Below the pieces are notes generated by a model. It saw only the letters and a program-made list of their open reading frames with translations. It did not search any database and was not told the origin of the DNA. From Stegostoma tigrinum (lineage: Eukaryota), in contig NC_081391.1 of assembly GCF_030684315.1 (NCBI RefSeq), positions 4,554,048 to 4,618,047 on the forward strand: a DNA stretch of 64,000 nucleotides. The letters run 5' to 3'. Made by a program: the position numbers and the translations under genes. Positions 9,068-60,134 of the stretch are shown piece after piece (positions within the stretch are counted from its first letter, which is position 1; the number at the start of each line of letters is the position of its first letter).

Positions 9068-11402
9068 TTGTTACATAGATAGAAGGAACTGCTGACACTG
9101 GAGAATCTGAGATAACAAGGTGTACAGCTGGATGAACACAGCAGGCCAAGCAGCAACAGAGGAGCAGGAAAGCTGACGTTTTGGGTCTAGACCCTTCTTC
9201 AGAAATGGGGGAGGAGAAGGGGATACTGAAATAAATAGGGAGAAAGGGGAAGGCAGATAGAAGATGGAGGCGCATAGAAGATGGATAAAGGAGAAAATAG
9301 GTGGAGAGGAGACGGACAGGTCAAGGAGGTTTGGTTGGAGCCAGTAAAGGTGAGTGTAGGTGGGGAGTTACGGAGGGGATAGGTTGGTCCAGGGAGGATG
9401 GACAGGTCAAGGAGGCGGGATGAGGCTATTAGGTAGGAGATGAGGGTGGGGCTTGAGGTGGGAGGAGTGGATAGGTGGGAGGACAGGTTAGGGAGGCGGG
9501 TATGAGCTGGGTTGATTTTGGGATGCGGTCGGGGGAGGGGAGATTTTGAAGCTTGTGAAATCCACATTGATACCACTGGTCTGCAGGGTTCCCAAGCAAA
9601 ATATGAGATGTTGTTCCTGCAACCTTCGGGTGGCATCGTTGTGGCACTGCAGGAGGCCCAGGATGGACATGTCATCCAAAGTGTGGGAGGGGGAGGTGAA
9701 ATGGTTCGCGACGGGGGGGTGCAGTTGATTGTTGCGAACCAAGCGTAGATGTTCCACAAAGCAGTCCCCAAGCCTTCACTTGGTTCCCCCGATGTAGAGG
9801 ACGCCACAATGGGAACAGCGGATACAGTATACCACATTTGCAGATGTGCAGGTGAACATCTGTTTGATGTGGAAGGTCTTCTTAGGGTCTGGGATGGGGT
9901 TGAGGGGGGAGGTGTAGGGGCAGGTGTAGCACTTTCTGCGGTTGTAGGGAAAGGTCCCGGGGGTGGTGGGATTGGTGGGGAGTGTGGAGTGGATAAGGGA
10001 GTCACGGAGAGAGTGGTCCCTCTGGAAAGCAGATAAGGGAGGGAAAAATGTCTTTGGTGGTGGGGTCGAATTGAAGATGATGGAATGTCAGATGTTGATG
10101 CGTTGGATCCGGAGGTTGGTGGGGTGGTAAGTGAGGACGAGGGGGATTCTGTTATGGTTGTTATTGTGGGCGGGGGGATGTGAGGGATGTGTTGTGGGAA
10201 ATGCGAGAGACACAGTTGAGGGCGTTTCCGACCACTGTGGAGGGGAAGTTGCAGTCCTTGAAAAATGAGGACATCTGGTATGTCCGGGAGTGGAATGCCT
10301 CAACTCGGGAGCAGATGCAGCGGAGGCGAAGGAATTGGGAATAGGGCATGGCCTTTTTGCAGGAAAGTGGGTGAGAGGAGGTGTACCCTAAGTAGCTGTG
10401 AGAGTTGGTAGGCTTGAAATGGATATCGGGTTCCAGGTGGTTGCCAGAGATGGAAATAGAGAGGTCCAGGAGGGAGAGAGAGGTGTCAGAGATGGTCTAG
10501 TTGAACTTAAGGTTGGGGTGGAAGGTGTTAGTGAAGTGGATGAACCGTTTGAGCACCTCGTGGGAGCATGAATCGGCGCCGATGCAGTCATCGATATAAC
10601 AGTGGAAGAGGCCAATGCAGCTTCGGAAGAGGGATTGTTCCACGTAACCTACTAAGAGGCAGGCATTGCTTGGTCCCATGTGGGTGACCATGGCCACCCC
10701 CTTTGTCTGTAGGAAGTGGGAGGAATTGGAAGAAAAGTTGTTGAGGGTGAGGACGAGCTCAGCTAAGCAGATGAGGGCGTCAGTGGAGGGGGACTGGTCG
10801 GGCCTGTGGGACATGAAGAAGCGAAGGGCCTTTAGGCTATCTGCATGGGGAATGCAAGCGTACAGGGACTGGACATGCCTGGCAAAGATGATTTCTTGAG
10901 GACCAGGGAATCAGGAGTTTTGGAGGAGGTGGAGGGCATGGGTGGTGTCACGGACGTGGGTAGGGAGTTCCTGGACCAAGGGGGAGAAGATGGAGTCGAG
11001 ACAAGTGGAGATAAGTTTGGTGGGGCAGGAGCAGGCAGAGACAATGGCTCGACCAGGGCAGTCAGGTTTGTGGATTTTGGAAAGGAGATAGAAGCGGGTG
11101 GTGCAGGGTTGAAGCGATTGATGTCTCAGCGGCAGTTGAAGATGAAGAGATCGAGAGAGGGTAGGAGGCCTTGGGGTGGTGTCCAGGAGTACGGGGTGTG
11201 TTGGAGGTGGTGGAAGGGGTTAGGCTCAAGATTAAAGAAGTAAGCGCCAAGGCGACGGAAAAACTGTTCAACGTCCAAGTGTGAGCGGTATTCTTTGATA
11301 TATAGGTGGAGGGGGACAAAGGTGAGTCCTTTACTGAGGACTGACCGTTCGCCATCAGTGAGAGGGAGATCTCGGGGGATGGTGAAGATCCAGCCCTGCC
11401 AG
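9068..11402 (-). mobile_element. Penelope-like element, long frameshifted copy (N-terminal region, RT, GIY-YIG, terminal repeat)
   Basis: Minus-strand fragments LTLNNFSSNSSHFLQTKGVAMVTHMGP, CYIDDCIG, PYSQFLRLRCICS and PVANHF...LIFCLGTLQ. Terminal repeat has a hammerhead motif at 9173-9204 with GAAA mutated to AAAA. Confidence 0.9.
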
Positions 11403-15500: not shown

Positions 15501-15575
15501 TTGGACTACAGATTTTCCTCACAAGATCAGAATTCCCATACAGGATATGCACAGTCCAGCCCAAAAAGAGACAAG
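15501..15575 (+). CDS. Candidate phase-0 exon (75 nt) of unidentified plus-strand gene: LDYRFSSQDQNSHTGYAQSSPKRDK
   Basis: Strong acceptor ttgcctttttttcag, donor AAG|gtcagt, open frame. Shares xD.RFS...NS...QSS...DK with the 84-nt exons. Confidence 0.65.
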
Positions 15576-16069: not shown

Positions 16070-18885
16070 ATAAGACATAAGACATAGGATTGGAAGTAAG
16101 GCCATTCGGCCCATCAAGTCCACTCCGCCATTTAAATCATGGCTGATGGGCATTTCAACTCCACTTCCCTGCACTCTCCCTGTGGCCCTTGATTCCTTCT
16201 GGGATCAAGAATTTGTCGATCTCTGCCTTGAAGGCATCCAACGTCCCGGCCTCCACTGCACTCCGTGGCAATTAATTCCACAAGCCCACCACTCTGGCTG
16301 AAGAAAATTCGCATCATTTCCGTTTTAAATTTACCCCCTCTAATTTTAAGGCTGTGCCCACGGGTCCTAGTCTCCCCCCCAATGGAAACAACTTCCTAGC
16401 GTCCACCCCTTCTAAACCATACATTATCTTGTAAGTTTCTATTAGATCTCCCCTAAACCTTCTAAACTCTAATGAGTACAATCCCAGGATCCTTAGCCGT
16501 TCACCATACGTTAAACCTACCATTCCAGGGATCATCTGTGTGAATCTCTGCTGGACACGCTGGAGGGTTAGTATGTCTTTCCTGAGGTGTGGGGCCCAAA
16601 ATTGGACACACTATTCTAAATGGGGCCTAACTAGAGCTTTATAAAGCCTCAGAAGCACATCGCTGCTTTTATATTCCAACCCTCTTGAGATAAACGACAA
16701 CGTTACATTCGCTTTCTTAATTACAGACTCTACCTGCAAGTTAACCTTTACAGAATCCTGGACCAACACTCCCAGATCCCTTTGTACTTCTGCTTTGTGA
16801 ATTTTCTCACCATTTAGAAAATAGTCCATGCCTGTATTCTTTTATCCAAAGTGCAAAACCTCACATTCACTCACATTGAATTTCATCAGCCATTTCCTGG
16901 ACCACTCTCCTAAACTGTCTAAATCTTTCTGCAGCTTCCCCACCTCCTCAGTACTACCTGCCTGTCCACCTATCTTTGTATCATTGCCAATCTTCGCCAG
17001 AATGCTCCCAGTCCCTTTATCCAGATCACTAATGTATAAGGTGAACAGCTGCGGCCCCAACACTGAACCCTGCGGGACACCACTCGTCACCGGTTGCCAT
17101 TCTGAAACAGAGGCTTTTATCTCAACTCTCTGCCTTCTGTTAGACAGCCAATCCTCAATCCAAGCCAGAGCTCACCTCGAACACCATGGGCCCTCACCTT
17201 GCACAGCAGCCTCCCGTGAAGCACCGTATCAAAGGTCTTTTGGAAGTCTAGGTAGATAACATCTACTGGGTTTCCCTGGTCTAACATACTTGTTACCTCT
17301 TCAAAGAATTCCAACAGGTTTGTCAGGCACAGCCTCCCCTTATTAAATCCAATGTGACTTGTTCTAATCTAACCCTGCACTTCCAGGAATTTAGAAATCT
17401 CATCCTTGACAATGGATTCAAGAATTTTACCAACTACCGAGGTTAGGCTAATTGGCCTATAATTTTCCATCTTTTGCCTTGATCCTTTCTTAAACAAGGG
17501 GCTTACAACGGCAATTTTCCAATCATCTGGGACTTTCCCAGACTCTAGTGACTTTTGAAAGATCACGACCAAAGCCTCCGCTAGTTACTCAGCCACCTCC
17601 CTCAGAACTCTAGGATGTTGCCCATCGGGGCCAGGAAATTTATCAATTTTTAGACCTTATAGCTTTTCTAGCACTTTCTCTTTTGTAATATCTACCATAC
17701 TCAACTCTGCCCCCTGACTCTCCCTAATTGTTGGCATACTACCCATGTCTTCCACTGTGAAGACTGACGCAAAGTATTTATTAAGTTCTTCAGCTATTTC
17801 CTTATCTCCCATCACTAGCCTTCCAGCATCAGTTTGGAGCGGCCCAATATCTACTTTTGCCTCTCGTTTGTTTCTTATGTATTGAAAAAAGCTTTTACTA
17901 TCATTTCTAATATTACTGGCTAGCCTACCTTCATATTTGATCCTCTCCTTCCTTATTGCTCTCTTTATTATCCTCTGTTTGTTTTTGTAGCCTTCCCAAT
18001 CTTCTGATTTCCCAGTGCTCTTGGCCACTTTATAGGCTGTCTCTTTTTCTTTGATATATTTCCAGACTTCCTTTGTCAGCCATGGCTGTCTAATCCCACT
18101 CCGGATAATCTTTCTTTCCTTTGGGATGAACCTCTGTACTGTGTCCTCAATTACACCCAGAAACTCCTGCCATTGTTGCTGTACTGTCTTCCCCGCTAGG
18201 CTCTGCTTCCAGTCGATTTTCGCCAATTCCTCTCTCATGCCCCTGTAATTACCTTTATTTAACTGTAATAGCATTACATCCGATTTTGCCTTCTCTCTTT
18301 CAAACTGCAGACTGAACTCTACCATATTATGATTGCTGCCTCCTAAGTGTTCCCTTACTTTGAGGTCTTTTATAAAGTCTGGTTCATTACATAGCACTAA
18401 GTCCAGAATAGCCTGCTCCCTTGTGGGCTCCATCACAAGCTGTTCCAAAAAGCCATCCTGTAAGCATTCCATGAAATCCTTTTCTTCGGATCCACTGGCA
18501 ACATTATTCACCCAATCCACCTGCCTATTGAAGTCCCCCATGATCACCGCGACCTTGCCTTTCTGACATGCCCTATCTATTTCTTGGTGCATCTTGCACC
18601 CCTGGTCCTGATCATTGTTAGGAGGTCTGTACATAACTCCCATTATAGTTTTTTTGCCTTTGTGGTTCCTCAATTCCACCCACACAGACTCCACATCTTC
18701 TGACCCTATGTCATTCAGTGCCGAAGATTTAATTCCATTCTTAACTAACAAGGCAAACCCACCCCCTCTGCCCACCTCTCTGTCTTTTTGATATGTTGTG
18801 AATCCTTGGATGTTTAACTGCTAGTCCTGAACTCCCTGCAACCATGACTCTGTGATGCCTACCACATCATAATCATTCAAGAGGA
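16070..18885 (-). mobile_element. CR1-type LINE ORF2 (APE endonuclease + RT), 5'-truncated, frameshifted
   Basis: ORF 17657-18775 has GVMYRPPN, IMGDFN, PTREQAILDLVL. RT fragments ENYRPISLTSVVGKILE, YLDFQKTFDTV, SGVPQGSVLGPQLF. 3' tail of TCTTATG-like repeats. Confidence 0.92.
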
Positions 18886-20964: not shown

Positions 20965-23900
20965 CCCCTCTGGTCTCAGCCTAACAGCATCGTGCTGTAC
21001 TTATGCATGCGAAACGAGAAACTAAACTTCACTATCTCAAAGACAACTAGGGATGGGTAATAAACTAATTACTCCCATATCTTCACAATGAATACAACAA
21101 AATACATTGAGAAGCAGGCAGTTCATTATTCATTTGTATTTAACTTCAGTTGCAGAAATAGTTGAAAATCTTATACTATGATTGAATATAATGAGAAGTA
21201 AGCTTGCCTCCATCTGTCATTCAGGTAGATATAATTTTCTGTCCACTTGAAGAACAGAACTCTTACACTGGATATGTCAGCGCTTATTCCAGAACTGATA
21301 GGGTCAGTATTTTCACTTTATTTCCTATTTTAAATGAGCCTATTTAAGAAATAAAAGACTTGCATTTATATAGTGCTTTAACATACCTCAGCACATTTTA
21401 AAGCACCTTATGCCTGGTGAAATATGCTTGGTACATAACAACTATTGTGATAAATGTGGTGGCAGACTCCCATAAACTGCAAGATGATATGGGCTTTTGG
21501 ATGTTAATTGAGGGAGAAATATTGACCAAGGCATTGTAGTGTCCACATGAGATGACAGATACTAAGGCTGCTTCTGCCCTCCAGGTGAACATTTCATTCA
21601 AAAGACAGCCCCTGTGACAGTAGGAAAGAAATGACAGTGGGAATGTCATTAGGCGGGTTATTGTTCTGGGCTAATGGGTTCAAATCCTAGTAGCTGGTAG
21701 AGTTTGAACTCGAGAAAAAAAACTATGGAATTTAAATAAAAGGTAATTGCTCGTGTAACAATTCTCATTAAAAACCCATCTGCTTTACCATTGATGTCTA
21801 GGGATGGTAATCTGCCATCCCATTTCTGACTCCAGATCCTCAGCAATGCTGTTGACAGTTAACTGCTCTGAGGACAATTATGGATGGGCAAAAATCATCC
21901 ATGAAAATGTTTTAAAATGTCCAGTGCTGTGCTGCCAAAGTGCAAACAGGTATATCGTACTCAAGTCTCTGGAATGGAACAGTCTGAACTCTGAGCTATG
22001 ACTAATACTAATTGTTGGATAAATGAACATGCAAGAACAACTAAATTAAAACCATTATTATGATGAAATGGAGTGAATTCAGAATCCTGATCAGTATAGT
22101 TGGGCAGTTTAGTGTGTCCCTCTATGAAGGAGAGTTTTGCCTTTTATTATCTGCTTTTTGGTGTGTTGGTTAGATGTACCTTAAAGCTGTTTGACTGCAT
22201 AGGGCATTGCATCCCTGACTGATCCTGTACTTCCCATATTTACAGCAGGATAGTGATCAGAAGTAAGGGACCTAATTATTTCATACTCTTCATTGAATAA
22301 TTCTATCTTTCCTGTAACCCTTGAATTGGCTGAATTCTTCTAATTTGTCACCCAATAAGATGAAATCTTTCTGTTCACAATGGTTCTCTTCTGTATTGCC
22401 TGACTAGTTGCATTGTAGTCAGGCTGTACAGAACTGAACCTATCTGTTTTTGAAGCCCTTGATGTCCTGCTTGCTTTCATGATTGGACTACCCTATGCAT
22501 TTCTGAAAAGCTTTCTTCCTTCTACTTGTCATAAAATGAAGCTCATCCAAAACTCTGCTGCTGGTATTTTAACTCTCACCAAGCCTTGTTTATTCATCCA
22601 CACCCCGTCCCCATGCTTACTGACTCCTGGTCCAGCAATGCTTCACATTTAAAGCTTTCATCCTTGTTTTCAAATTCGTCCATGGCTTGAGAGCAAGCCA
22701 GGAGGAAAATTTACAATATTGCAGAGACTTACTCATGAAGTGATGTTGTCATAATGTCACTCGTCGAGTAATCTAGAAACACAGGCAAGTCCTCTGGGGA
22801 TGTTAAATCACATCCCATGTGGCAGCCAGCAGAATTTAAAATTCTGTTCATAAATTCTGAATCAATAATTTGATTATTTAATGTGACCATGAAATTATGT
22901 TTTTAAAATAAATCTGGTTCATTAATGCCCTTTAGGGTAGGAAATCTGCAATCTTTATCCAATCTGACCTATATATGACTCCAGAACCATGGCAATGGAG
23001 TTGACTCTTAATGCCTGTAACAGTGTGAAATGGCAACAAATATTTGCCTTGCCAGGGATGCAGACATCCAGTGAAAGAAATTAAGTGCAATATTCTCCTA
23101 TTTATTATCCTTTGTACTAGACCTGACAAAGTGTCTAATCAAATAGAGTTGTGTGGCCCACAACCATGTTTCAGTACTCCCCAAATGACATTCTCAGGGG
23201 GTACCAAACTTGATCTGGTTTTCCTGAGAATTGTCAATTGTGGCTGATTCTATTCCTGGAAGTTCCACTGCATGGCCTAGCACCCTCTGACCTCCTGCCC
23301 TCATGCTCCCTCCTATCCCCACTGGCCGTCCATTCTCAGGACGCAGCACCTTCCCAGCCAATTGGAAAGCCAGAAATTTTTGCTTGATTAGTTCATACTT
23401 AACTTTCAGTCAAAATGCCCTTGTCTTTCCCAACCCCCAATGTTTTTATGACCGACAAACAAAAGTGTTGTAATCAAATTACTATTTTTGATGTGACACC
23501 TACCCACCTCTTTGCAGTACTCTCCTGAAGGTTAATTTCATATTGCTGGACAGAGTGGGCATCCTTCAGCGTTGGCGACCTGTATTCTCATGTAGCATAG
23601 TCATTTTTCAACAAGACTTGCAATGTCATTCTGGCTGAATGATCCCTACCTTCCCAGTCTATTGATGTAGTAATATCACTGATTTATTTGGTTTGTGTGT
23701 TCACTCCTTAAGTTTTTTGGAAACATATTCCTTGTGAGTAACTTCAGATCCTGTTCATAACATTTTTCACAACTTGCCTTACAATGTACATAGATATTTC
23801 TTCTGGGCTGAGGTTTAGTTAATCTAGAGACTGTCCTGGGTGGATTTCTTGAGGATCTGGTTTGCATTTTCACAGGTTAGCCATGTCTCTGTGCTGTGGA

Positions 23901-24617
23901 CATTTCCAAGCAGATTCCCAGCAGTGTATCGCAATACGTCCTCCCGTATAATTCACCAGACTGTGCAAGTGTATTGTTATTTGACAGGGGATCTCACCAC
24001 TGCTCATCATCTTATAATGTTGTATGCCAGCACTGCTAACATATTATGGGTAAATTCTGTGCCACCAGTCCGTTTTACTGATTTTTGTCGCGTTACTAAT
24101 GCTTTGTAGGACAGAATTCCCACATAATACCTTAGGCAGAATATAGGCTTTGTCTTGGGCAGACAGTAAAGTTTCTTACATACTGCCTAGCGGCTATATA
24201 CATTACATCAGAGATGTGCACAGCAGAGTCACTTGGTATGTGGAGAACTGATACAGCACTCTGAAGAATTAGAGAACTGGTTAGCTCCTCCCCGGAAGAG
24301 TCCTTTATATCCTTGAGCTTAGGCAGGATATTGTTAACTTGTTCAGATCCTAATTGCCTTTTATAATACATACCTCTCCACACAGTACCAGTGTATCTCT
24401 CCACGCTTTCCAGTGTGTTATACCACACAGTGCCAGTGTGTTACACCATATTTTACCACCATATCACATTGGGCTGTCCCACCGTAGCTTACTAGCCTAT
24501 ACCACTATATCTCACTGGTCTGTTCCCATGTTCTTCATTGCACCGTGTCTGTGCACCTCCTCGCTCAGTATATCTCACCCTGTCTTACAACTATATATGC
24601 TTCTTGTTTTATTGCAG

Positions 24618-24701
24618 ACTGACAGAGGGTTCTGAGGTAGAAACTTCTGAAACTCACTGAAGAGAGATATCCATCTCCAGACTAATGATAACTGTGATAA
24701 G
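24618..24701 (+). pseudogene. Inactivated copy of the 84-nt repeat exon (pseudo-exon): TDRGF*GRNF*NSLKRDIHLQTNDNCDK
   Basis: Acceptor ttgcag is kept and the copy aligns without gaps to 35869-35952. It has two in-frame TGA codons, and the donor reads AAG|gaagga instead of GT. Confidence 0.75.
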
Positions 24702-25219
24702 GAAGGACCTTGGGATGTGGGTGACATTGACAAGTCTGTATTGACTATCTGTCAACAGTTAACCTGAGGAAGTGGATCTGTTTCTTTATGAAACATTGTA
24801 CTCCATGTGTTGCATGGGCGGAGATGGTGTTATAGTGACTGGAACTCTGGAGACTCATAGCTAACACTTTGGGACGCTGGTTCAAATCCCATGATTGCAA
24901 CTCAAATATTTTAAATGCTATCAGTAAATCTGAAATATAAAGCCAGTCTCAGTAATGGTGACCATGACAACTGTCACCAGTTGTAAGAAGGTTCATTAAT
25001 GTCTCTTTAGGCAAGGCAATCTGCCATCCTTACCCGGTTTGACCTACATCAGACTCCAGACCCACAACAATGTGGTTGACTTTGAATTGCACTCTGATAT
25101 CCCTGAGCAAGCCACTCAGATTAGATTCACATAGGAATGCGCAACAAATGCTAGCCTTGCCAGTGATTCACACATCCCATTGTGGCAATAAAATGTTATA
25201 CTAGCTGTGATGTTTGAAA

Positions 25220-25945
25220 GGTCTGTGGCGTTGGGGCTAATGTATTAGCATGGATAGAGGATTGGCTAACAAATAGAAGACAGAGTTTGAATAAGGGGGT
25301 TTTTTCAGGATTATAACCTGTGTGCCACTAGGATCAGTGGTCAGGTCACAATTATTGATCATATATTAATGACTTGGAAGAGGAAAGTGTATAGTTTTGC
25401 ATTTGCACAAAAATAGATGCAAAGTGAAGTTTGAGGATAACACAAAGAGTTTGCAGAGATATATGGACAGGTTAAATGAACAAGTAAGAATTTGGCAGAT
25501 GGAATATAATGTAGAAAATTTGAAGTTATGCACTTTTGTTGGAAGCATGGAAGAGCTGACTTGTATTTAAATGGTGAAAGACTGCAGAAAGCTAAAACAC
25601 AGTGGGATTTGACAGTCCTCAATCATGAATCACAAAAAGCTAGACCCAGGTTTAGCAGGTAATAGGGAAAGCAAATGGAGTGTTGAACTTTGTTTCAAAG
25701 GGAAGAGAGTATAAAACTAGGGATGGGTTGTTAAAATTATTCAAGGCACTCGTCAGATCGCAGCAAGAATACTTTTGGTCCCATTACCTAAGGAAAGATG
25801 TACTGACATTGAGGCAGTCCAGAGAAGGTATGCTAGTTTGATTCCAAGTATAGATAATATGTTTTTCAAAGAGGTTGGGTGGATCAGGTCTGTACTCAGT
25901 GGAGTTATAATAATGAGGTGACCATACTGAAACGTACAAGAAAGA
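25220..25945 (+). mobile_element. Decayed CR1-type LINE RT fragment
   Basis: Similar to the RT region of 16070-18885 in the opposite orientation (ATATTAATGACTTGGA, TGGCAGATGGAATATAATGTAG). Confidence 0.65.
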
Positions 25946-25962
25946 CTAGATCTTGGTCTGCT

Positions 25963-26540
25963 GTGATCTTGGACAGGTCAAGGAGGCGGGCTGAGGTTAG
26001 TGGATAGGGGCTGGGGGTACGGCTTGAGGTAGGAGGAAGGGTTAGGGAGGCAGGGACTAGCTGGGCTGGTTTTGGCATGTGGTCAGGGGAGGGGAGACTT
26101 TGAAGCTTGTGAAATCCACATTGATACCCTTGGGCTGCAGAGTTCCCAAGCAAAATATGAGATGCTGTTCCTGCATCTTTCAGGCAGCGTCATTGTGTCA
26201 ATGCAGGAGGCCCAGGATGGACATGTCGTCCAAGGAGTGGGGGGGAGAATTGAAATGGTTCGCGACTGGGAAGTGTAGTTGTTTGTTGCGAACAGAGTGT
26301 AGGTGTTGCACAAAGCAGTCCCCAAGACTTCGTTTGGTTTCCCCGAGGAAGCCACAATGGGAACAGCGGATGCAGTATATAACATTGACAGATGACCTGT
26401 CCGTTCTCCCTGGACTGACCTATCACCCTCTAACTCCCCACCTACATTCACCTTCACTGGCTGTACCCCGCCTCTTTGACCTCACCCTATCTTCTCCTTT
26501 ATCCATCTTCTATCCGCCTCCCCCTGTCTCCCTATTTAGC
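25963..26540 (-). mobile_element. Penelope-like GIY-YIG fragment (minus) joined to an inverted tail fragment (plus, ~26392-26540)
   Basis: Near copy of 9400-9830, followed by TGACCTGTCCGTTCTCCCTGGACTGACCTATC in the opposite orientation. Confidence 0.8.
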
Positions 26541-26544
26541 CCAA

Positions 26545-26697
26545 AGATGGGCAGGCTAGGTGGATTGGCGATGCTAAATTGCCCGTAGTGTTCAGGGGTG
26601 TGTGGGTTATAGGGGAATGGGCTGGGTGGGATGTTTCAGGGGGCGGTGTGGACTTGTTGGGCCAAAGGGCCTGTTTCCACACTGTAGGGAATCTAAT
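26545..26697 (+). mobile_element. HE1-like SINE 3' fragment
   Basis: GGATTGGCGATGCTAAATTGCCC...GGGCCTGTTTCCACACTGTAGGGAATCTAAT is homologous to the 3' half of 1396-1746. Confidence 0.7.
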
Positions 26698-26699
26698 AA

Positions 26700-27812
26700 T
26701 TCAGAGCGTAAATACTCTCAGATAGAGAAGGAAGGTTTGGCAGTAATAATTAGAGCCAGGAAGTTCTACCAGTATCTTTACAGATGTAAATTCCTAATAA
26801 TAACAGACCACAAAACCATGCTAGGTCTACTTAGAGAGGACAAGACAGTGCAGCCCATAACTTCAGCCTGAATTCAACAATAGGCTCAAATATTTAAATG
26901 TGTGTGATTACACATTGAACACTGTCTAGGAAGCCAAGTAGCAAATGCAGAATGCATTGAGCTGCCTCCTGCTGGCAGATACCTCACTGATAATACTGCC
27001 ACGGGAATAGTCCATAGTGGTTTTAAATTTTTTGGATACACTTCCTGTCGCAGCTGACAGTATCAGACTGTGGAGGTGGAAAGATTTAGCCCTGGCAAAA
27101 CTGAACCAGTTGGTGGTGATGGGGGAAGTCCAAAGAACCATCACAGCCAGAATGGAAATCTTTTTGAACCAGAAGAGATCAGATCGCAGTAGAGAATGAC
27201 ATATGATTATGAGGAGCAAGAGTGATTGTCCTGACCAAAGGATCACTGCCTGAAACTGGCTGAATTCCACCAGGATCATCCTGGGGATTCCAAAATGAAA
27301 ATGTTGGTGAGGAAATACGTCTGGTGGCTAGGATGGAATGCAGACATAGTCATGTTGGTAGGGCAGTACCCAGAGTGCCAACAAGGACAAAAGTTACCCC
27401 AGCAGCACCCCCACATTAGTGGAAATGGCTGGGTAAACCCTGGACTCGTTTATACATTGACTATACAGGTCATTTCATGAATTCAATGTTCTTAGTCATT
27501 GTGGACACCCACTCAAAGTGGATGGGTGTGCATAGAGTTCAGTCATCAAACATGGGGACAGTGATAGAAAAACTGCACACATTTTTTGCAATATGCAGAC
27601 TCCCGGAAATGTTGGTCAGAGATAACAGTCCATCATTTAACAGCAGGGAATTTGAGCACTTCCTAAAGTTAAATAGTATTTTTCATATAAGAACAACTCC
27701 ATACCATCCATCATCTAATGGTCTGCTTGAAAGAGCAGTCCAAATTTTGAAGGCAGCCCTAAAGAAACAGTCTACAGCTTCACTAGATACCAAACTGTCC
27801 GGGTTCTTATGT
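26700..27812 (+). mobile_element. Ty3/Gypsy LTR-retrotransposon pol remnant (RNase H + integrase)
   Basis: ERKYSQIEKEGLAVI...FLIITDHK (RNase H). H..HPG...MKMLVRKYVWW...ECQQ (degenerate HHCC). FLVIVDTHSKW...DNSPSF...TTPYHPSSNGLLERAVQILK (integrase core). Many stops; no LTRs seen. Confidence 0.88.
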
Positions 27813-27814
27813 GA

Positions 27815-30800
27815 TTGTTTAAAAAATACTGTTCTTTTCTCCTTCCTTCCAAAATGAGGAACTTCACATTTTCCTATATTGTACTCCACTTGGCAACTTT
27901 TTGCCCAATTACTTTACCTATCAATATTTCTCGGTAAATTGTGTCCTTCTTACCACTTGCTTTACCATCTATTTTTGAGTCATCTGCAAACTTGGCTACA
28001 GTACATTCACTTCCTTCTTCCAAATCATTAATATATATTGTAAACAGCTGTGGGTCTCAGCACTGATCCCTGTGGAACACCACTAATTACAGCTCACCAA
28101 TCTGAAAAAGAACCCCTTTCCCCACTGATGTTTCCTGCCCATTAGGCAAATCTCTTCTATGCCATTATACTACATTCAGCCCCATGGTTAACAACTTAAC
28201 CTTTCGTGAGGTACTTTGCAACATATCTATTAGTTCCCCTCGATTCACTCTGGTTCAGACGTCCTCGGAAATCTCTAATAAATTAGTCAATTATAGTTCC
28301 CTTTATGCTTTCCTTAATAATCGATTCCAATATTTTTCCTGTGATAGATGTTAGGATAATTGGCCTATAATTATTCACTTTTTGCCTCCGTCCCTTTTCG
28401 AATAGGGATGTCACATTGTCAGTTTTCCAATCCTCTACTACTTCTCCAGATTCCAAGGGTTTTTGGAAAATTACAACTAATACATCCACTGTGTCTGTAG
28501 CTTCTTTTTTTACTTTTTTGCCTTTAGCCCTATTAGTTTGCCTAATACTTGTTCTTTAATGATGGTGATGGTACTTAATTCCTCCCTGTGCTCTTTAGTA
28601 TTAATGGTATGTTTGAAGCATATTTCACTGTAAGGATTGATACAAAACAGCCTCCAGCTTCATCATCCACCAACCCTGGCGGTAGCCCGTTCTTATCTAC
28701 TAACCAAAAACCACAAACCTGACTGCCTCGGCTGACCCATTGTCTCTGCCTGCTCCTGCCCCACTGAACTTTTCTCTGCTTACTTTGACTCTATTTTCTC
28801 CCCCTTGATCCAGGAACTCCCCATCCACGTCCGGGACACCGTCCACACCCTCCACCTCCTCCAAGACTGCCAATTTCCTGGACCCCAACGCCTCATCTTC
28901 TCTATGGACATCCAATCCCAGTACACTTGCATTCCCCACTCAGATGGCCTAAAAGCCCTCTGATTCTTCCTCTCCCACAGCCCCAACCAGTTCCCCTCCA
29001 CCAACACCCTCATCCACTTAACTGAACTCGTCCTTACTCTCAACAACTTCTCTTTCAACTCCTCCCACCTCCTACAGACAAATGGGAACCTGCAAGGGCC
29101 CAAGGTATGTCTGCTTCTTTGTAGGATACATGGAACAGTTCCTTTTTCACAGCTACGCTGGCACTATCCCCACTACATGTATGACTATATCAGTGCTGCC
29201 TCATGCTCCCACGAGGAGCTTGAATAGTTCATCAACTTTATTAACACTTTACACCCCAACCTTAAGTTCACCTGGACCATCTCTGATACCTCTCTCCTTC
29301 TTGGACCTCTCTGTCTCCATCTCTGGTGACCACCTAAAACCGATATCTATTTCAAGCCCACCAACTCCCACATTTAACTAAACTACACCTCTCCTCAACC
29401 AGCTTCCTGCAAGAATGCCACCCCTACTTCTAATTCTTCCGCCTCCACCATGTTTGCTCCTAAGATGGGGTGTTCCACTCCCACAATTCCTAGATCTCCT
29501 CTTATTTCAAGGACCGCAACCTCCCCACACCACCTTCAGTGGTTGAAAATGCTCTCGACCACATCTCTTGCATTTCCCGCACTTCTGCCCTCACATCCCC
29601 TCGCTGCAACAAAAACAAAGACAGAATTCCCCTTGTCCTTATGTATCACCCCACTTACCTCTGGATTCAACGTATCATTCTCCACCACTTCCACTACCTG
29701 TAATCTGACCCTACAACCAAGGATATATTTCCCTCCCCACCCCGTCTGCCTTCCGAAGGGAGTGCTCTCTCCACAACTCCCTTGTCCGCTCCACACTCCC
29801 CACTAGCCCCACCACCCTGGCATCTTTCCCTGTAATCGCAGGAAGTGCAAAACTGCCCCTACACCGCCCCCTCATCTCCATCCAAGGAACCAAAAAGACC
29901 TTCCACAGCAAACAGAGGTTCACCTGCACATCCGCCAATGTGGTCTACTGCATCCGTTGCTCCCGATGTGGATTCCTCTACATTGGTGAGACCAAGCGGA
30001 GACTCAGAGACCGCTTTGTATAGCACCTGCGTTCTGTTTGCGACAAATGACAACACCTTCTAGTCGTGAACCATTTCAACTCCACCTTCCACTACCTGGA
30101 TGACATGTCCATCTTGGGCCTCCTCCAATGTCACAATGAAGCCACCCAGAACCTGAAGGAGCAGCACCCCATTTTCCGCCTTGGGAGCCTACAACCCAAA
30201 GGTCTCAAGGTGCTCTTTGAGACAGTAGGAACTGCTGATCTGGAGTCTGAGATAACAAGGTATGGAGCTGGATGAAAACAGCAGGCCAGGCAGCATCAGA
30301 GGAGCAGGAAAGCTGACATTTCGGTCCAGACCCAAAAGATCAGCTTTTCTGTTCCTCTGATGCTGCCTAGTCAGCTGTGTTCATCCAGCTCCACATCTTG
30401 TGATCAATGTGGACTTGTTTCAAAATCTCCCCACCGCTGGCCTCATCCCACGACCAACCCTCCCTCTCATTCCCACCTCCTTGACCTGACACAACCTGCC
30501 CATCTCTCTCCCCCTCCTCCCACCTCACTGACCAATCCCCACCACTCCCTACCTGCACTCACCTATCAGCGTCCCACCTACCTTCCCCAGCCTCAACCCT
30601 CCTCTGTCTATTTATTTCAGAGCTCCATTCCCCCTCCCCCATTTCTGAAGAAGGGTCCAACCCGAAATGTCAACTTTCCTGTTCCTCTGATGCTGCCTGA
30701 CCTGCAGTGTTCTTCCAGCTCCATACTGTATTATCTCAAAATATTTGTTTAACTCCTTTGCCATTACCTTGATTCCCATAACTTTCTGCCCAGATTTATT

Positions 30801-31110
30801 TTCTCAAGGTCTATGTTTACTTTGACCTCTGTCTTCTTTTTTTTAAAGAATCTCATTGTCAGATTTTATTATTCCTTACTAGGTTGCTGTTGCAGCTTAT
30901 TTTCTCTCTCGTTGTTATTTTTTTCATCCTCCTTTGCTGGATTCTGAATTTGTCCCAGTCTTTGGGCAATCGAAGATTTTTAGCCTCTTTCTATGCTTTT
31001 TCTTTCATCTCAGTACTCCCATTGACTTCTTTGGTTAGCCATGGTTAGTTTATTCCTCTTAAAATCTTTCTTCCTCACTGGATGTATTTTTGCTAAGAGT
31101 CATGAATTAC
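27815..31110 (-). mobile_element. Old CR1-type LINE (27815-28647 and 30738-31110) split by a Penelope-like insertion
   Basis: EDWKTDNVTSLFEKG...NYRPIILTSITGKILE. Sequence before 28648 and after 30737 rejoins into a stretch homologous to ~17750-17800. Confidence 0.75.
28648..30737 (+). mobile_element. Penelope-like element (RT to GIY-YIG) with an internal inverted terminal-repeat fragment (~30220-30335)
   Basis: Homologous to 56780-58766. Hammerhead motif CTGAAGA-AGGGT-CCA-ACCC-GAAA-TGTC at ~30645-30671. Confidence 0.88.
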
Positions 31111-32085
31111 CTCTTTAAATTCAAGGCTGAGGTTGACAAATTTTTAATGTGGAAAGGAATCAGGGGTCAGGGGAAAAGGCAGGAAAATGGACCTGCAAAT
31201 TATCAGATCAGACACAAACTCGTTGAATGGTGGAGCAGACTCGATTTGCTGCAATGCTTACTTCTGTTCTTACAATTCATGGCATCAGGGGAGTTATATG
31301 TTCCTGACCCAGGACAATGAAGTAACTGCACGATCTGTGTTCCATTCGGCATTGTATGTGAGATAAAGGTGCCCTATGACGCTGCCAGTGGCAGAGTTTG
31401 CTGTGGGAATAAATTTAGTGCATTGATGCAGACCCTCATTTTGATAATAGATGCCATCGGAATAAAAGGAATGATCTCCAGTACTTCCTGTTACTCGTTT
31501 GCAGAATTTGACCACATCCTCTACACAAATCATTCCCTTCTTCTTTCTGCTTCCCTGCTGTCTCCCCAGATCTTGGTTTACTGCTTCCAACCCTTTGCTT
31601 TTCCTCAATGCAACCGGGCATCAACCTGGAAAGTTAACTCTGCCTAATTTCTCCAGAGATGCTGCTGCCATTCGGCAGCTGATGACATTTAAGATGAGTC
31701 GACAAAGAGACATTGTTCTTTTTTATGAAAGGATTAGGAATGAAAAGGTATAGACTTAAAATAATTGGCAAAAAAGCAAAAGTGATATGAGGAAAAACAT
31801 TTTCATGCACCAAGTGGTTAATGCACAGCCTGAGAGTGTGCTTAAGGCTGGGCTAATTGAGCTATTTGAAATGGAATTAGACAATTACCTGAAAAGGAAG
31901 TATGTGCAGAGTTATGGGGAGATGACAGGAGAATGGCACCATATGAATTGCTCATTAGGAGAGCAAGAATAGCTGATGTTCTCCTGTGCTGTGACAATTT
32001 TGTGATTCTGTAATCTGCTGAACATTTCCTGGGTTTCCACTTTTTCTTCCTTTCAACATTTTTTTTGCTTCTTGTCCCATTTCAG

Positions 32086-32169
32086 ACTAGTAGAGGATTC
32101 TCAAATAGAACCTCTTCAGACTCGCTGATCAGAGATCTCTACCTACAGACTAGCGACAAGCACAATATG
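32086..32169 (+). CDS. 84-nt phase-0 repeat exon: TSRGFSNRTSSDSLIRDLYLQTSDKHNM
   Basis: Acceptor cttcttgtcccatttcag, donor ATG|gtaagc. Frame 0 is open; frames 1 and 2 hit stops. Confidence 0.75.
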
Positions 32170-33363
32170 GTAAGCATGTTTGTGTATTAACCCTTGAGAT
32201 AAAGCTGATGCTGGCCAGTTGAAAATGGCACTTACTGATCACTGGCAGCTGTATTGCTGCAGCAGTTTCTGTTTTCAATTGAGTTGGAAATGTTGACAAA
32301 ATTTTAAAGTTCAAATCAACGCTAGGTCTCAGTGAGACTAAGAGATGAGTCTCAGAAAAGATCGGCCTGTCAGTATCAAGAAAGGAAGATCAAGCAGTAA
32401 TAAATCAGCAGTCCATTTTTTAAAAGCTAGTTTCATTTCTCTTGTGGACTAGTTTGCTCTTCTACTAAGTGTTGGAGTTGAGGTGTGAGTTTTCCAAACA
32501 CTGAATTCTAAAGCCATTTATAGACTGCATCAGAATGAATTCTTGCACAACAGAGTTCTCCAGAACCTGACTGCAAACTGCTTATTCCTTTGCCCTGTTA
32601 GAGTTGCTGGCTGGTTTTTGTTGTTTAGTTAATGGTTCTGAAAGGGTTAATGACAAAGACTGCATTATCCTCCACCCAGTTTCATCTTAGAATATCATAG
32701 ACTGTAGACCTATGACCACACATTAAGAATGTCTGAGTATTAATGTAACTTGTACCGAATTACTAACATGCAATAAACTGCATCTTGTTAAAATGAGAAC
32801 CACTTGTTGGTAAGGCTCAATAGTGGTTGATCCCTCATCACTGTAAATCCATAAAAGCTTTAAGATCCAATCAAGGAAAGAGGACTGGTAGCAGCATCCT
32901 TTTATGCTTAAATGCCATAGATTTCTGTTGCTGGCATGGAGTGTTATTCCAATTGGCGAACATGTTGTCAATGCCAGCTCTGCTCTCTGTGCAATGATGT
33001 GTGTGCTTCTCTGATGTTGACATCCATTGTTTTCACATGTTATTCCCTGTTTTAACCATTAATGCATGAATAGTGGCTAAGGAAATAAATTATACCCACC
33101 AATCAAAAATACCCACTCCTGGCATTTCATCAAAGTTATAAACCTTAAAACTGGGTGAAGTTCACAATGTGAGTATGAATGTTGAGATCACTTCCTGCAG
33201 TAGTGGCCTATTTGTCCTTCATTAACAGACAGTGTCGGTCGGTGCTGTCAAATACAATTAGCTCCATTTACAGTCACTAGAAGAAGCTAAGGAATGGAAA
33301 AATCAATAAGTGTCCTGTTCTCCAAACAGTTATAAAACTTGTTTTCTTTTTGCTCCATTACAG

Positions 33364-33447
33364 TCAGATCGAGGATTCTCAAGTAGAATGTCCTTGAACT
33401 CAATAAATAGAGATATTTATCTGCACGCAACTGATAACAATGATAAG
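33364..33447 (+). CDS. 84-nt phase-0 repeat exon: SDRGFSSRMSLNSINRDIYLHATDNNDK
   Basis: Acceptor tttgctccattacag, donor AAG|gtaaga. Open in frame 0. Confidence 0.75.
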
Positions 33448-34749
33448 GTAAGAGAATTTTTGTGTTTCTTCTTGGAATTTGATTGACACTAACAAGGTTG
33501 CATTAGAAACCTAGATACAGAAGTAAGTCAAGCAGCCCCTTGAGTCTATGCCACTAAACAGCTGGTTATTGCTGGTCTTTAAAACTCCAAAAACCTGCCT
33601 TTGCCCCTTATCCCTTGAATGCTTTGCTTAATAAATAACTGTTCATCTCAGGTATAAAATTAACAATTGATTTCACGTTAAATCTGTTAAATGGTTCAGT
33701 TCTGAAGAAGAGTCATAGCGGATTCGAGACATTTGCTTCATTTCAACACAGATACTGCCAAATCTGCTGAGTTTCTCCAGCATTCTCTGTGGTCATTTCA
33801 GATTTCCAGAATCCAGAATATTTTGCCTTTATTGGAGGCCAAAGAATGATGGCTGACCTTCTTATTCATTCATGGGGTGTGGGTGTCATTGGCTAGGTCA
33901 GCATTTACTACCCACCCCTAATTGCCCAGAGGGCAGTTAAGAGTCAGCCCCATTGCTGAGCGCCTGCAGTCACCTCTTTGCGAGACTGGTAAGAATGGCA
34001 GATTTCCTTCCCCAGAGGGCATAAGTGAACCAGATGAGGTTTTGCAACAATGAAAATCGTTACATGGTCACCATTAGGCCAGCCTTTTTCATTCCAGATT
34101 TTTATGCAATTTTCATTTCGCCCAGGATTGAACAAATGAATCTAGGACATTAGCTAGGGTTTTTGGATTACCTTGTCCAGTGATGCTACCATTACTCCTC
34201 CATGTTCCTTAATCATTGAAATGTATAAGACCTTGATCAAATGCAGGACAATGGATATTAGGAAGATGATTCTTCTGGTGAAGGAGACTAGAACTAGAAA
34301 ATACATATTAATCATAAAAGAGGTCTCTTTGACACCGAGATCAAGAGAGTTTTTTTTTCTCTCGAAAGGCCAGTAGCGGTGTGAAATTCAGTCGTCCAGA
34401 AGGCACAGGATATTTAAAATTATCCAAGATGGAGTTAGATACATTTTTGATAAAGGAGTTGAGGGTAATTGGGAGCGGAAGGAAAGTGAAGAGAGATTAC
34501 AAATAGATTATTTATTGTGTTATTGGGGCAGGCTCAAAAGCTAAACGGCCTGTTCTTTTTAAGCCCTGTATTCCTATGAGTTAATTGTTATATTTTATTT
34601 GCATTTAATATGTTTGCTTGAGTTAAATTCTGCCTTAGAGAGCTATTATAATAAGATGATACAGTTATTAGGGGTCACCTGCTGGACGTACGGCCTTCTG
34701 AGTCTCCAAGTCTTTGACTTAAATGTAAAAATATGACAGAAAGATGGTA

Positions 34750-34845
34750 GAGATAACAAAGCATAGAGCTGGATGAACACAGCAGGCCAAGCAGCATCTT
34801 AGGAGCACAAAAGCTGATGTTTTGGGCCTAGACCCTTCATCAGAA
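34750..34845 (-). mobile_element. Solo PLE terminal-repeat insertion with hammerhead motif and 13-bp direct repeat
   Basis: CAGAAAGATGGTA at 34737-34749 and 34841-34853. Insert matches 1184-1278 in reverse; the GAAA box is mutated. Confidence 0.8.
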
Positions 34846-35868
34846 AGATGGTAATTCCTTGAGGGGGAAATGAAAGGCCAGGAAGACTCTGATTGATTGG
34901 CTGGTATTTTTGTGGGCTATGAAAGGATTTGTGAGGTTTGAGTCTTATTGAGAGATTGGGTGTGACAAACAAGGGCAGGTACAAAAGTTGTCCATTTTCT
35001 CCTCAGCTTTGGTAGCTTTTAATATCCCTGTTAGAACCATGGTGTTGAATTTTTCAATAAGACCCTTGATCTCATGCACTCCCTAGAAGCTACTCGCACC
35101 AGGTCACCTGCTGTCTGTCACATCTCCTCCATGAGCTACACATTTTATATAAAAGAAATGCACTTGGTTTGTACTGAGCTGGTCTGATTGAAATCAATCA
35201 ACTGTCCATTGCTAATTACCCTGAATAGGGTTCGCTGGGCTGCTTTTTTGAACTGTAACAGTCCAGGTGGGTGTTGGTGGATTCATCCTGGCATTTGGAG
35301 TGATAACGGAGGAGCTGTGTGATACATTTCCAAATCAGGATGGTGGGGACTCAGAAACTAATTCAAAGGCAGTTGTGCTGTTGTGATTTCTGTGAATGAG
35401 GTTGCAAGACTGGGAGGTACTCTGGGAGTGAGTTTAATAAAATACTGCAGTGTCTCCTGCAGACAGTATAGCAGACAACAGCACCATTAACTACAGGCAC
35501 TAATTTGAGTTAAAACGCCTTAGATATATTCCAGGAAGATGAACCTCATAAGTGAACCAATATAAACAGCATGTCTCACTGTTAAGTGTGAAACCCCTGC
35601 AATCGTTCATCTTTCTTAAAAGTTTCAAACTGCTCCTAATTTTGGGCCTAGACTTCATCAGTGTGATTTCTGGGAATTCTGTCACATGCAGTGAGAATCT
35701 GCAGGCCCTGCAGTCCACTCTTTATCGAGAACCTTTTTGGATGCTGCTTGTACTCTGCCCTGTTGGCTCTGCTTGCTGTTAATTGTTGGAAGAAGCTGTG
35801 AAGTGAAAACATAAATAGACTGTTCTCCAAACCTTTAAAATACTTATTTGCTTCCTGTCCCATTACAG

Positions 35869-35952
35869 ACAGATCGAGGATTCTCAAATAGAACCTCCTC
35901 AAACTCATTGAGCAGAGATGTCTATCTACAAAGTAGTGATAACTGTGATAAG
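35869..35952 (+). CDS. 84-nt phase-0 repeat exon: TDRGFSNRTSSNSLSRDVYLQSSDNCDK
   Basis: Acceptor cttcctgtcccattacag, donor AAG|gtgaga. Frame 0 is open; frames 1 and 2 hit stops. Confidence 0.78.
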
Positions 35953-37098
35953 GTGAGAGCATCTTAGTTTTTGTTCTGTAAGTGTGATTGTTATTGACAA
36001 GGCTGCATCAGGAACATTGGAAAGGAGTCACACCACATCCTAAACTCCCCAACCACTAGAGATAGCAATAACAGCTTTATCGCATCCTTCCCTGGTTGTT
36101 CTGCAAAGTCTTCCTGAGATAGCTTCTGGAACACCTATGGTCTGCGTTGTAGAGTTTTCAGAATGGAAGTTCGGTGGCTGACATTCCGGCTCTGCTGGAT
36201 AAAAGTGAAAATTACTAACATAGACCTGTTGTAGTATCCAACACTATTCCCCAGGCTTCCTCTTTTTGTGGATGTGGATTTGGGGGCCTGCCAGGCATCC
36301 AGTTAGTCATTAAGAGCCTTGCTAACCAGGGTTAAAGGAGGTTATTTGAGATTTTTCAGTCAGCCTTCAATATTCCAGCAACACATGGGAGCCATACAAA
36401 CAGTTGGCATTCATCCAGTCTAAGATGCCCTGGGAAGGTTAACAGATATTCCCGGCCTCCCTGTGTGTCAGTGACCATGCTGTCACTGGATTCCCTTCTC
36501 CTGACTGTCCTCTCCACCACCTTCTGCCCCTCATCTGTTTTATGTTTAGATTTTAAAATCTTGTTGAAAAGATGCTTCTATATTGAATCCCCCCAACGGT
36601 TACCCCCTGCTGCTTCTTTCAGCCCTGAAGGTCTCCCATTGACCCATGTGTTTTGAAAGCCCACCAGGCACTCTGAATAGGACAGGAAACTTGGATCTGT
36701 GCTATTTAATTGGACTCTAGTATCAAAATTCCAAAATATTGGTTCACCTCTGTGGTGGCTTTCAAACCCAGGAGCAGTCCCAAACCCTCATTCCCAACTG
36801 CTATTCCCTCCATTCCACCAGCATTCCTATCCTTGAAGTGAAAATGCGACTTTAAGTTTCTGACCCAGCAACAATGAAGGGCCACTGCAATACATCTCCA
36901 AGTTGGAATGGTAAAGTTACCGCACATAACAAGAGTCACCAGGTCCTGAGCCCATTCTTCATCTAGAACCTGTTTGGATGCCATTGTTCTTCACCCTCTT
37001 GGACCTCCTTGTAGTTGGTTGTTAAAAGAAGCTATGAAATAAAAACAGGCAGTTCTCCAAACCTTTAAAAGACTTGTTTGCTTCTTGCCCCCTTGCAG

Positions 37099-37182
37099 AT
37101 AGGTCAAGGATTCTCAAATAGAACCTCCTCAAATTCATTGAATAGAGATGTACATCTACAGAGTAGTAACAAGCCCATCAAG
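37099..37182 (+). CDS. 84-nt phase-0 repeat exon: IGQGFSNRTSSNSLNRDVHLQSSNKPIK
   Basis: Acceptor cttcttgcccccttgcag, donor AAG|gtagga. Open in frame 0. Confidence 0.75.
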
Positions 37183-41411: not shown

Positions 41412-41825
41412 TTAGATGCCCCTCTGTTTCAGATAGTTGGCCACTTCATGGACCTTCTTATTGAGCGCTCCACCATGAACACCCTTTTTGCCCATCACAA
41501 ACACCATTGTCTTGATGGTTTTCCCGATGCAGATGCTCTTGCCTTGACCGCCCTTCATCCTCACATCCATCACTCCATCATTGTTGACCATGAGGTTGTC
41601 CCTGATGACAGAACATTTCTTTCCCCCGATGGTGATGCCAGTTTGTAAGAAAGCCTTGCGATCCTGTCCTGTTAACATGCTGACCTCCTGTGGGGAGATG
41701 GCAGCCAGCACACCTCCGGGTTTTGAAGCCCAGACGGACTTGTTGTCAGCATGGCCCACAATGGCAGCATCTTCCACATTCTTATCCTTCAATATACTAT
41801 TGATGTAATTCTTCCAGTCAGACAT
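41412..41825 (-). CDS. PFN3: Profilin-3, intronless, 137 aa
   Basis: MSDWKNYI...AIVGHADN.SVWAS.PGG.LAAISPQEV..LTG.DR..FLQ.G...CSVIRD.L...MGKKGVHGG.LNK.VHE closely matches mammalian PFN3 as recalled (also 137 aa, single coding exon). A at -3 and an in-frame TAG two codons upstream fix the start. Confidence 0.93.
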   Translation of the reverse strand: MSDWKNYINSILKDKNVEDAAIVGHADNKSVWASKPGGVLAAISPQEVSMLTGQDRKAFLQTGITIGGKKCSVIRDNLMVNNDGVMDVRMKGGQGKSICIGKTIKTMVFVMGKKGVHGGALNKKVHEVANYLKQRGI

Positions 41826-58766: not shown

Positions 58767-60073
58767 ATAATCCAGTTAAACCTGCAAATGATGGATAGTG
58801 GCTTGACTTCTCTTTTCTAGCTCAAACTGGAGCTTCAGTACACCTAGTGTATCATCTCCAAATATGTATTTTTTTCTAGTTTCTACCTCTATCTCCAAAC
58901 TGGATGGTTGGGGACAGTGAAATTCTTCCCCATCTTTCTGAAGCATAACTACCTCCCAGTCAGCACCAGCTGGTCTCTATACAAAGCCTCCGGTCATACC
59001 GTTAGAACTGAATCTGAGCCTCACATTTATTCCACTGACTGTTTATTCTACTGTCTGTGTATTTGTATCTAAAGATCTTATTTAGACAAGAAACATGCCA
59101 TCCTCTCCAAGTGGTGCCTGAACACTGCAATTGACCCTCTGTAAACAGGTTAATGTTTTAACTGTAAGATCTGTATCACTGTTTGTGGGCTGAATTCTTC
59201 CCTTATCCCTGTCTTAAAACTAATTATTACTGTTTCTGACTGACATCCCACTCTTGTCTTTCAGTTTAAAGTCCTGTTTATGCTCCTCTGTATTTTTTCA
59301 CTGGAATTCTCTTGGGCTAGGTTTGGTACAGAGATGAACTTCAGTTGACTTTAATTTTTCCAGCGTGCAGATTCTGCCTGAGACAGTTTAATGAAAGCCT
59401 GCTTTGTCCTTCCTGTCTGCAGTGGGTGGCTGTGCCAGCTGGAATGATCTGCATGAGCCAAGTGAGACTGACGGCAGTTCCTACTATCTCTGAGACTGAC
59501 TACTAGCCAAGATTCCTGGAGGGAGCGGTGCCTAAGCTTGCTCTGTGCCCATCAGGCAAAGTCAGGGTCGGGTTGGGTTGGTGTCAAACACCCAGGGTTT
59601 AATGACTGGTTTTGTACCTGGAGTGTCCCGCACCAGGGCTTTTGACAAGCTTGTAGTTGGAATCTGATTAGTGGGCAGATCCAGGAAGTGGAAATTGCCC
59701 CAGCATTGCTTGCCTAACTAAGACCTTTAGACACAAACTCTAATGGATTTCCTGTCAATGCCAATCTGGATGGAGCCACTATGACGGTAATGTGTAACTC
59801 AGCTTTCAGTGCACATAATTGTTTTTTGCTTTGCTGCTTCAATTGGAAAGTTCCAGTCAAAAGAGCTGATGGTGCCTGTGTATGAGTATGTTCTCTTCCT
59901 GACTGGGGGTTCTCTTTCTGACAGTGCATCTGCTCTTTTTCTTACTGTATTTGAGTGTTGCCTGTCTTTTTGTTCTCTTTCTGACTGCATTTTGGCCTGA
60001 TAGCTTTCTCACTGCATTTGGGTGTTTTTTTTTATCTGAATGAGCATTCACTTTATGACTAAGTGTTCCCTTT

Positions 60074-60080
<7 letters not shown>

Positions 60081-60132
<52 letters not shown>
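60081..60132. repeat. (TG)n microsatellite
   Basis: Perfect TG run of about 52 bp. Confidence 0.98.

Positions 60133-60134
<2 letters not shown>

Follow-up and report, generated by a model that had tools for sequence, protein, structure and literature searches.

Exon-per-unit 28-residue repeats in the TRIOBP gene of the zebra shark and other cartilaginous fishes

Human TRIOBP is a deafness gene, and DFNB28 results from the loss of its R1/R2 repeats. TRIOBP is described as an intracellular actin-binding protein (PMC7663296); R1 and R2 of the human protein are actin-binding repeats that form the actin-bundling part of the mammalian long forms and whose consensus is unlike that of the unit reported here (PMC7663296, PMC9544205), and exon 7, a single large exon, encodes them both (PMC9544205). 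In zebrafish, the two TRIOBP genes are tabulated among the deafness genes enriched in hair cells (PMC5939014). Two further systems offer points of comparison, namely cortactin, an actin-binding protein in which skipping of one repeat exon lowers binding to filamentous actin (F-actin) (PMC5482648), and the PEVK region of titin, which is encoded by many short exons that are duplicated or lost between species and spliced to change length (PMC6469411). More generally, exons that are symmetric and arose by tandem duplication are characteristic of disordered protein regions (PMC3632108). Here a stretch of 64,000 nucleotides (nt) from the zebra shark Stegostoma tigrinum (contig NC_081391.1, positions 4,554,048 to 4,618,047, forward strand; hereafter the window) was analysed, which contains a tandem array of 84-nt exons, each encoding one repeat of 28 amino acids (aa), that almost certainly belong to TRIOBP. 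Coordinates are relative to the window, with negative values lying upstream of it and values with a plus sign beyond its end.

The preliminary description of this DNA, made from its letters and open reading frames, had reported five 84-nt units, each following a pyrimidine tract and AG, with four of them ending at a GT donor and open in frame 0. Re-reading of the sequence bore this out, as follows:

24618-24701, + strand: dead copy (pseudo-exon) with two in-frame TGA stops and GA where the donor GT is expected; 22/28 residues shared with whale-shark unit 1
32086-32169, + strand: intact phase-0 TRIOBP exon encoding a 28-aa unit (aa 546-573 of XP_059496808); 27/28 identical to the whale-shark orthologue
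33364-33447, + strand: intact phase-0 TRIOBP exon of 84 nt (aa 574-601 of XP_059496808); 24/28 to whale shark
35869-35952, + strand: intact phase-0 TRIOBP exon of 84 nt (aa 602-629 of XP_059496808); 26/28 to whale shark
37099-37182, + strand: intact phase-0 TRIOBP exon of 84 nt, the final unit (aa 630-657 of XP_059496808); 28/28 to whale shark

The peptides of the four intact copies were exactly those quoted previously. Frame 0 alone was free of stops in these units, except at 35869 where frame +1 was open too, and pairwise identity among the 84-nt copies was 62-79%. Using an approximate splice-site matrix built for this analysis, all five acceptors and all four donors fell within the top 1% of the AG/GT sites of a 264-kb background. 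A sixth copy, sought with DNA and protein profiles, was found neither in the window nor in the 264 kb. The introns are full of retroelement debris, as might be expected if the unit had no connection with splicing and were instead a dispersed repeat or a piece of a transposon, but that explanation is refuted by the strong splice sites, by orthologous in-frame units in 18 species and by a DNA search of the 3.2-Gb genome in which the five matches among five candidates (a lower bound) all fell at the TRIOBP locus, in one orientation and at single-copy depth.

The protein, left unrecognised in the preliminary description, is annotated in RefSeq. XP_059496808 (triobpb, Stegostoma tigrinum) matched the assembly exactly, exon by exon, with the four units at the same coordinates, and these exons are already present in the long isoforms of zebra-shark triobpb, XP_059496808-813. 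The model begins at an ATG at -71310 (71 kb upstream), placing the N-terminus upstream of the window as had been anticipated, and its PH exons start at +136370 (72 kb downstream of the window). The junctions predicted earlier (32169/33364, 33447/35869 and 35952/37099) were annotated in 6/6 zebra-shark long isoform models. A profile of the four peptides gave five matches at E<=0.001 among 1.84 billion representative sequences, four of them to cartilaginous-fish TRIOBP-locus proteins from catshark, thorny skate (two) and giant manta, labelled TRIOBP, MPRIP-like or uncharacterised. The fifth (P0004), an unnamed low-complexity S/K-rich repeat protein covering only profile positions 10-24, was dropped as unrelated. 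A second protein search returned eight proteins among 256 candidates, all from sharks and including zebra-shark triobpb.

This assignment was further examined with midpoint-rooted trees of the PH domain plus the last 260 aa, and of the PH domain alone, with MPRIP forming the other side. Among 24 rows, nine chondrichthyan proteins grouped with seven tetrapod TRIOBPs against eight MPRIP-type proteins with support of 100/100, so that the “MPRIP-like” names on some records are wrong. The PH domain was found by Pfam in the orthologues, and its start resembled that of the TRIOBP rows and differed from that of 32 MPRIP-type rows. The N-terminal half aligned by BLASTP with the TRIOBP N-termini of gecko (E 7e-35), frog (1e-14) and chimp (2e-14), and also of possum, and even a short form is thus a TRIOBP-4-like product. 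No Pfam family (cortactin, tau, nebulin and leucine-rich repeats included) was matched at E<=1 by the peptides of the four exons, and none was found over the repeat region of the orthologues; a reading of the 84-nt exons as leucine-rich repeat exons, based on their length, was rejected for want of a Pfam match. A PDB sequence search with the unit profile gave nothing better than one match at E 1.7, which was rejected.

Annotation assigns the N-terminal half to an “uncharacterized” gene of its own, stopping after the repeats, in whale shark, S. canicula, basking shark, thorny skate and sawfish, and a 99-kb stretch lies between the last unit (37182) and the PH-domain exons. Both observations would suit a separate novel protein, possibly secreted and glycosylated, a very improbable alternative that is largely refuted by the N-terminal alignments given above, by joined array-PH gene models in zebra shark and at least ten other species and by the lack of any strongly hydrophobic segment. 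Likewise, the glycosylated spacer proposed in the preliminary description is unlikely for a protein with a PH domain, a best 19-residue hydropathy of 0.98 and an intracellular location in the published account of TRIOBP (PMC7663296); the N-R-T sequons had been correctly noted in three of the four units, and a sequon occurs in 20/33 units when other species are included. In five of the six zebra-shark long models, two additional exons (+106321-106452 and ~+123030-123125) separate the array from the PH exon; the second ends in the residues that begin the whale-shark short isoform and may be the first exon of the short form, so that the joined models may themselves be artefacts. TRIOBP exon 1 (-71310 to -71158) encodes an N-terminal Cys/His motif common to shark TRIOBP, gecko TRIOBP and MPRIP and diverged in chimp and possum, which could possibly form a metal-binding knuckle.

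The shark protein shares with the TRIOBP long isoforms (TRIOBP-4/5/6) an N-terminal Cys motif, an ESGYFS motif, an anchor motif, a disordered tail, a TRIOBP-type PH domain and the C-terminal region. It differs in the tail, where the exon-per-unit array follows the anchor motif, whereas the mammalian proteins examined have 306-509 aa at this position without the 28-aa unit. Conversely, R1- and R2-type motifs were found in 0/17 chondrichthyan proteins as against 83/84 and 84/84 mammalian-type proteins, respectively, so that the repeats at issue in DFNB28 are missing from the sharks, rays and chimaera examined. The 28-aa unit was present in 18/18 cartilaginous-fish species (17 plus Hypanus) with 2-5 copies each, most of the chondrichthyan proteins scored having also been used to build the round-2 profile, which makes their scores circular; the two chimaera units, left out of the profile, gave weak scores of 11.7 and 13.2 bits. 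Among long TRIOBP/MPRIP proteins of bony vertebrates, the unit was absent from all of the 120 examined (the best 120 of 1587 matches), the top score being 2.4 bits. These comprised 88 TRIOBP-type (84 mammalian, three gecko and one frog) and 32 MPRIP-type proteins, and TRIOBP from gar, bichir, teleosts, coelacanth, lungfish or any other ray- or lobe-finned fish was not among the 88; with respect to those fishes, the restriction to cartilaginous fishes is therefore drawn from the two protein searches alone.

The earlier proposal that the array grew by duplication of symmetric phase-0 exons was supported. The exons aligned gap-free, whereas the upstream flank common to the copies at 33364, 35869 and 37099 aligned with gaps, in agreement with the previous contrast between indel-free exons and indel-bearing introns. 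The co-duplicated flanks are:

33280-33363, + strand: intron flank homologous to those 5' of 35869 and 37099, with indels
35694-35868, + strand: intron flank matching ~36932-37098, with 78% identity over flank plus exon

Since the homology between the 35869 and 37099 copies reaches ~170 bases upstream, exon and flank were duplicated together as DNA. Copy number changes not only by duplication but by exon death. The 24618 copy is missing from 6/6 zebra-shark long isoform models and its orthologue is intact in the whale-shark and bamboo-shark models. Contigs from four public runs of one study, of unrecorded kind and serving solely to confirm genomic letters, span 21000-25077 with a single differing letter at 22494 and none at the 24618 copy, indicating that the damage is real and not an assembly error. 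The array includes another dead exon outside the window at -2566 to -2485 (+ strand), which is related to the 28-aa type, 82 nt long and out of phase, and whose counterpart is an intact 29-aa unit in the bamboo-shark, basking-shark and Heptranchias models. Among carpet sharks the units correspond by position; three units compared in Heptranchias were 24-27/28 alike and two in basking shark 27/28 alike, a likeness that suggests further duplication or homogenisation.

Purifying selection on the units was supported by the comparison of live copies, with pooled proportions of synonymous (pS) and nonsynonymous (pN) differences of 0.52 and 0.22, respectively, and a nonsynonymous to synonymous ratio (dN/dS) of 0.30, from six non-independent pairs with ~18 synonymous sites per pair. 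In a neutral simulation, the joint chance that four copies would keep an open frame and both splice sites was 0.002-0.02.

The array is wider than first described, the five units having been correctly recorded and five further intact phase-0 exons within the window overlooked. The model has ten exons in a row, following the one that ends at -14486, with phase 0 at both ends (87, 81, 75, 99, 75, 78, 84, 84, 84 and 84 nt), and those preceding the 28-aa units in the window are:

2665-2745, + strand: phase-0 exon of 81 nt (aa 410-436), with no clear likeness to other unit types
5328-5402, + strand: phase-0 exon of 75 nt (aa 437-461), likely of a second repeat type; isoform models X2 and X5 skip it
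8147-8245, + strand: phase-0 exon of 99 nt (aa 462-494), with a sequence unrelated to the repeats
15501-15575, + strand: phase-0 exon of 75 nt, second repeat type
21225-21302, + strand: phase-0 exon of 78 nt, second repeat type; isoform model X3 skips it

The tail thus comprises exons of the 28-aa type, of a second 22-26-aa type and unrelated singles. Shuffle z-scores were ~4-14 within the upstream type and ~3-13 for the 28-aa type against two upstream exons; between the types they were mostly <3, so that this test did not show the two repeat types to share an origin.

With respect to function, the array is tentatively regarded as a splice-tunable, multi-site F-actin-binding array, our first choice among readings none of which is secure. 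The choice follows from the known job of the host protein, the absence of R1/R2 from sharks and a residue pattern that is fixed over 33 units. The tail of the long form is built from one phase-0 exon per repeat directly before the PH domain, and each 28-aa unit would act as a weak filament-binding site. On a protein oligomerising through C-terminal coiled coils, a series of such units could then cross-link filaments, the job of R1 in mammals, with binding strength set by the number of exons spliced in. The pattern R-G-F-x-x-R-x4-S-x-x-[RK]-D-[VIL]-Y is conserved, and among 33 units from eight species the counts were 30/33 for R3, 29 for G4, 29 for F5, 32 for R8, 33 for [RK]16, 31 for D17, 31 for [VIL]18 and 26 for Y19. 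Such constancy goes beyond what a plain spacer requires. The R1/R2 repeats provide a close parallel, being likewise S/T/R-rich disordered repeats in the tail of the same protein, with an R1 unit of ~24 aa (PMC7663296) compared with 28 aa in the shark; they show no sequence likeness to the shark unit and occupy a single exon 7 in the published description (PMC9544205), as opposed to one exon per unit. Cortactin is a different protein with a different sequence and without a Pfam match to the unit. Actin binding by the shark unit is put forward by analogy.

The tuning of repeat number by exon skipping, as suggested in the preliminary description, is supported by isoform models from Chiloscyllium and Hemitrygon, splicing and skipping here being read from annotation models. 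Specifically, C. plagiosum models contain 5, 4 or 3 units (at least nine models), those of C. punctatum 5 or 4 and those of Hemitrygon 3, 2 or 1 (at least ten models). In the zebra shark itself such skipping of the four units is not seen, 6/6 long models keeping all four and skipping upstream exons instead. This is one of several observations that speak against an actin-binding array. Unit number was constant in the models examined for two Mobula species, Narcine, Rhinoraja, Hypanus and Callorhinchus. The R1/R2 repeats are not homologous to the shark unit and lie on the opposite side of the anchor motif, with R2, and R1 wherever detected, preceding the anchor in 75/75 mammalian proteins whose anchor was located by pattern (in 9/84 it was not) and the shark array downstream. 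The shark array is also far less basic, with an isoelectric point (pI) of 9.6, 16 K+R against 12 D+E in 112 aa, compared with a pI of 11.8 and 54 K+R against 22 D+E in 260 aa for the chimp R1 region. The array evolves at least as quickly as the disordered parts outside the repeats, its identity being 81% to bamboo shark, compared with 86% for the N-terminus and 94% for PH, and 39% to skate, compared with 88% for PH. Finally, units are lost freely, with two dead exons in the zebra-shark genome and 2-5 copies among species.

Several of these features would equally be shown by a disordered spacer of tunable length, similar to titin PEVK, that links the PH/coiled-coil part to the conserved N-terminal motifs and whose sequence would be of little import beyond frame and disorder. 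This, the main rival for the same TRIOBP exons, is rather unlikely but has to be taken seriously. The tail before the PH domain is predicted to be disordered, as AlphaFold2 modelling of the whale-shark orthologue (724 aa, 18 rows) gave low confidence throughout (mean predicted local distance difference test, pLDDT, of 40); two short helices were placed at the anchor motif, and the array had no secondary structure, low pLDDT being consistent with disorder but no proof of it. The divergence of the array, equal to or above that of other disordered regions, and the frequent gain and loss of units also fit a spacer, as do the published statements that symmetric tandem exons are typical of disordered regions (PMC3632108) and that PEVK length varies through exon duplication and splicing (PMC6469411). 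On the other hand, the aromatic and charged residues are conserved by position in 33 units from sharks to skates, and dN/dS among copies is about 0.3. Titin PEVK is moreover a Pro/Glu/Val/Lys-rich, elastic and very large array, whereas the shark tail has about ten exons and a unit with a fixed aromatic/charged pattern and a proline content of 1%.

A third possibility for these exons, which we consider unlikely, is that each unit serves as a phosphorylation-controlled docking motif for a non-actin partner, such as an adaptor-binding site or a kinase substrate, as in the phospho-array suggested in the preliminary description. The array is 28% S+T, S/T-rich residues follow the near-invariant R8, and 32/33 intact units carry at least one R-x-x-S/T. 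However, S/R-rich sequence often contains this motif by chance, and units differ in carrying anywhere from 0 to 3 copies of it. The two RxxS motifs ascribed earlier to each unit were not upheld, R-x-x-S/T counts being 2, 1, 2 and 1 at 32086, 33364, 35869 and 37099, respectively. Nor do the units belong to a Pfam family or match a solved structure better than E 1.7.

Repeats that do not match the shark unit occur in the TRIOBP of other vertebrates. By eye, frog TRIOBP (P0155) contains a short repeat near the N-terminus and three geckos (P0144, P0145 and P0149) a ~34-aa repeat after the anchor, both being S/R-rich, tandem, lineage-specific and unlike R1/R2. With unrelated repeats in frog, gecko, mammal and shark, the TRIOBP tail is a recurrent site of independent repeat growth. 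A bolder and decidedly doubtful extension is that the tail independently gained actin-gripping arrays at least four times (mammalian R1/R2, frog, ~34-aa gecko and shark), that only cartilaginous fishes adopted one exon per unit and that splicing, together with exon birth and death, would set the valency and thereby how stiff the actin bundles of hair cells or electroreceptors are. The gene is known and annotated; its lineage-specific exon-per-unit repeat architecture is apparently undescribed, no account of the shark array having been found in a literature search on TRIOBP, most subscription papers being beyond its reach. If the array does the job of R1/R2, it would represent a natural convergent replacement and a new actin-binding motif, and, if it binds actin, valency could be read from isoforms with 1 to 5 units. 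As a mere spacer, it would be a neat though unexceptional example of how symmetric exons turn over where an annotated gene encodes disorder.

The introns are crowded with broken LINE-like (long interspersed nuclear element) retroelement fragments of very high depth in both orientations (1-1280, 9100-11400, 16800-18800, 25600-30800 and 56800-58800). A degenerate 19-nt satellite occupies 59800-64000 in the long intron after the array and continues to ~+90000, the downstream extent being suggested by low-complexity translated matches. The same intron holds, nested in antisense, an intact intronless gene for a 137-aa profilin (41412-41825, - strand; Pfam E 2e-31), with profilin-2 and -1 as the closest solved structures and which we take to be PFN3-like. 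The gene for a binder of actin monomers is thereby placed inside that of an actin-filament binder. A location in the SLC34A1 neighbourhood, suggested by synteny from the nearby profilin, was ruled out, the two Na/Pi-cotransporter matches lying on other contigs. A second, inverted profilin copy (L001 776-1466, + strand), ~28 kb upstream of the TRIOBP ATG, is 94% identical but broken, with a frameshift after ~residue 115 and a ~250-base insertion near the end.

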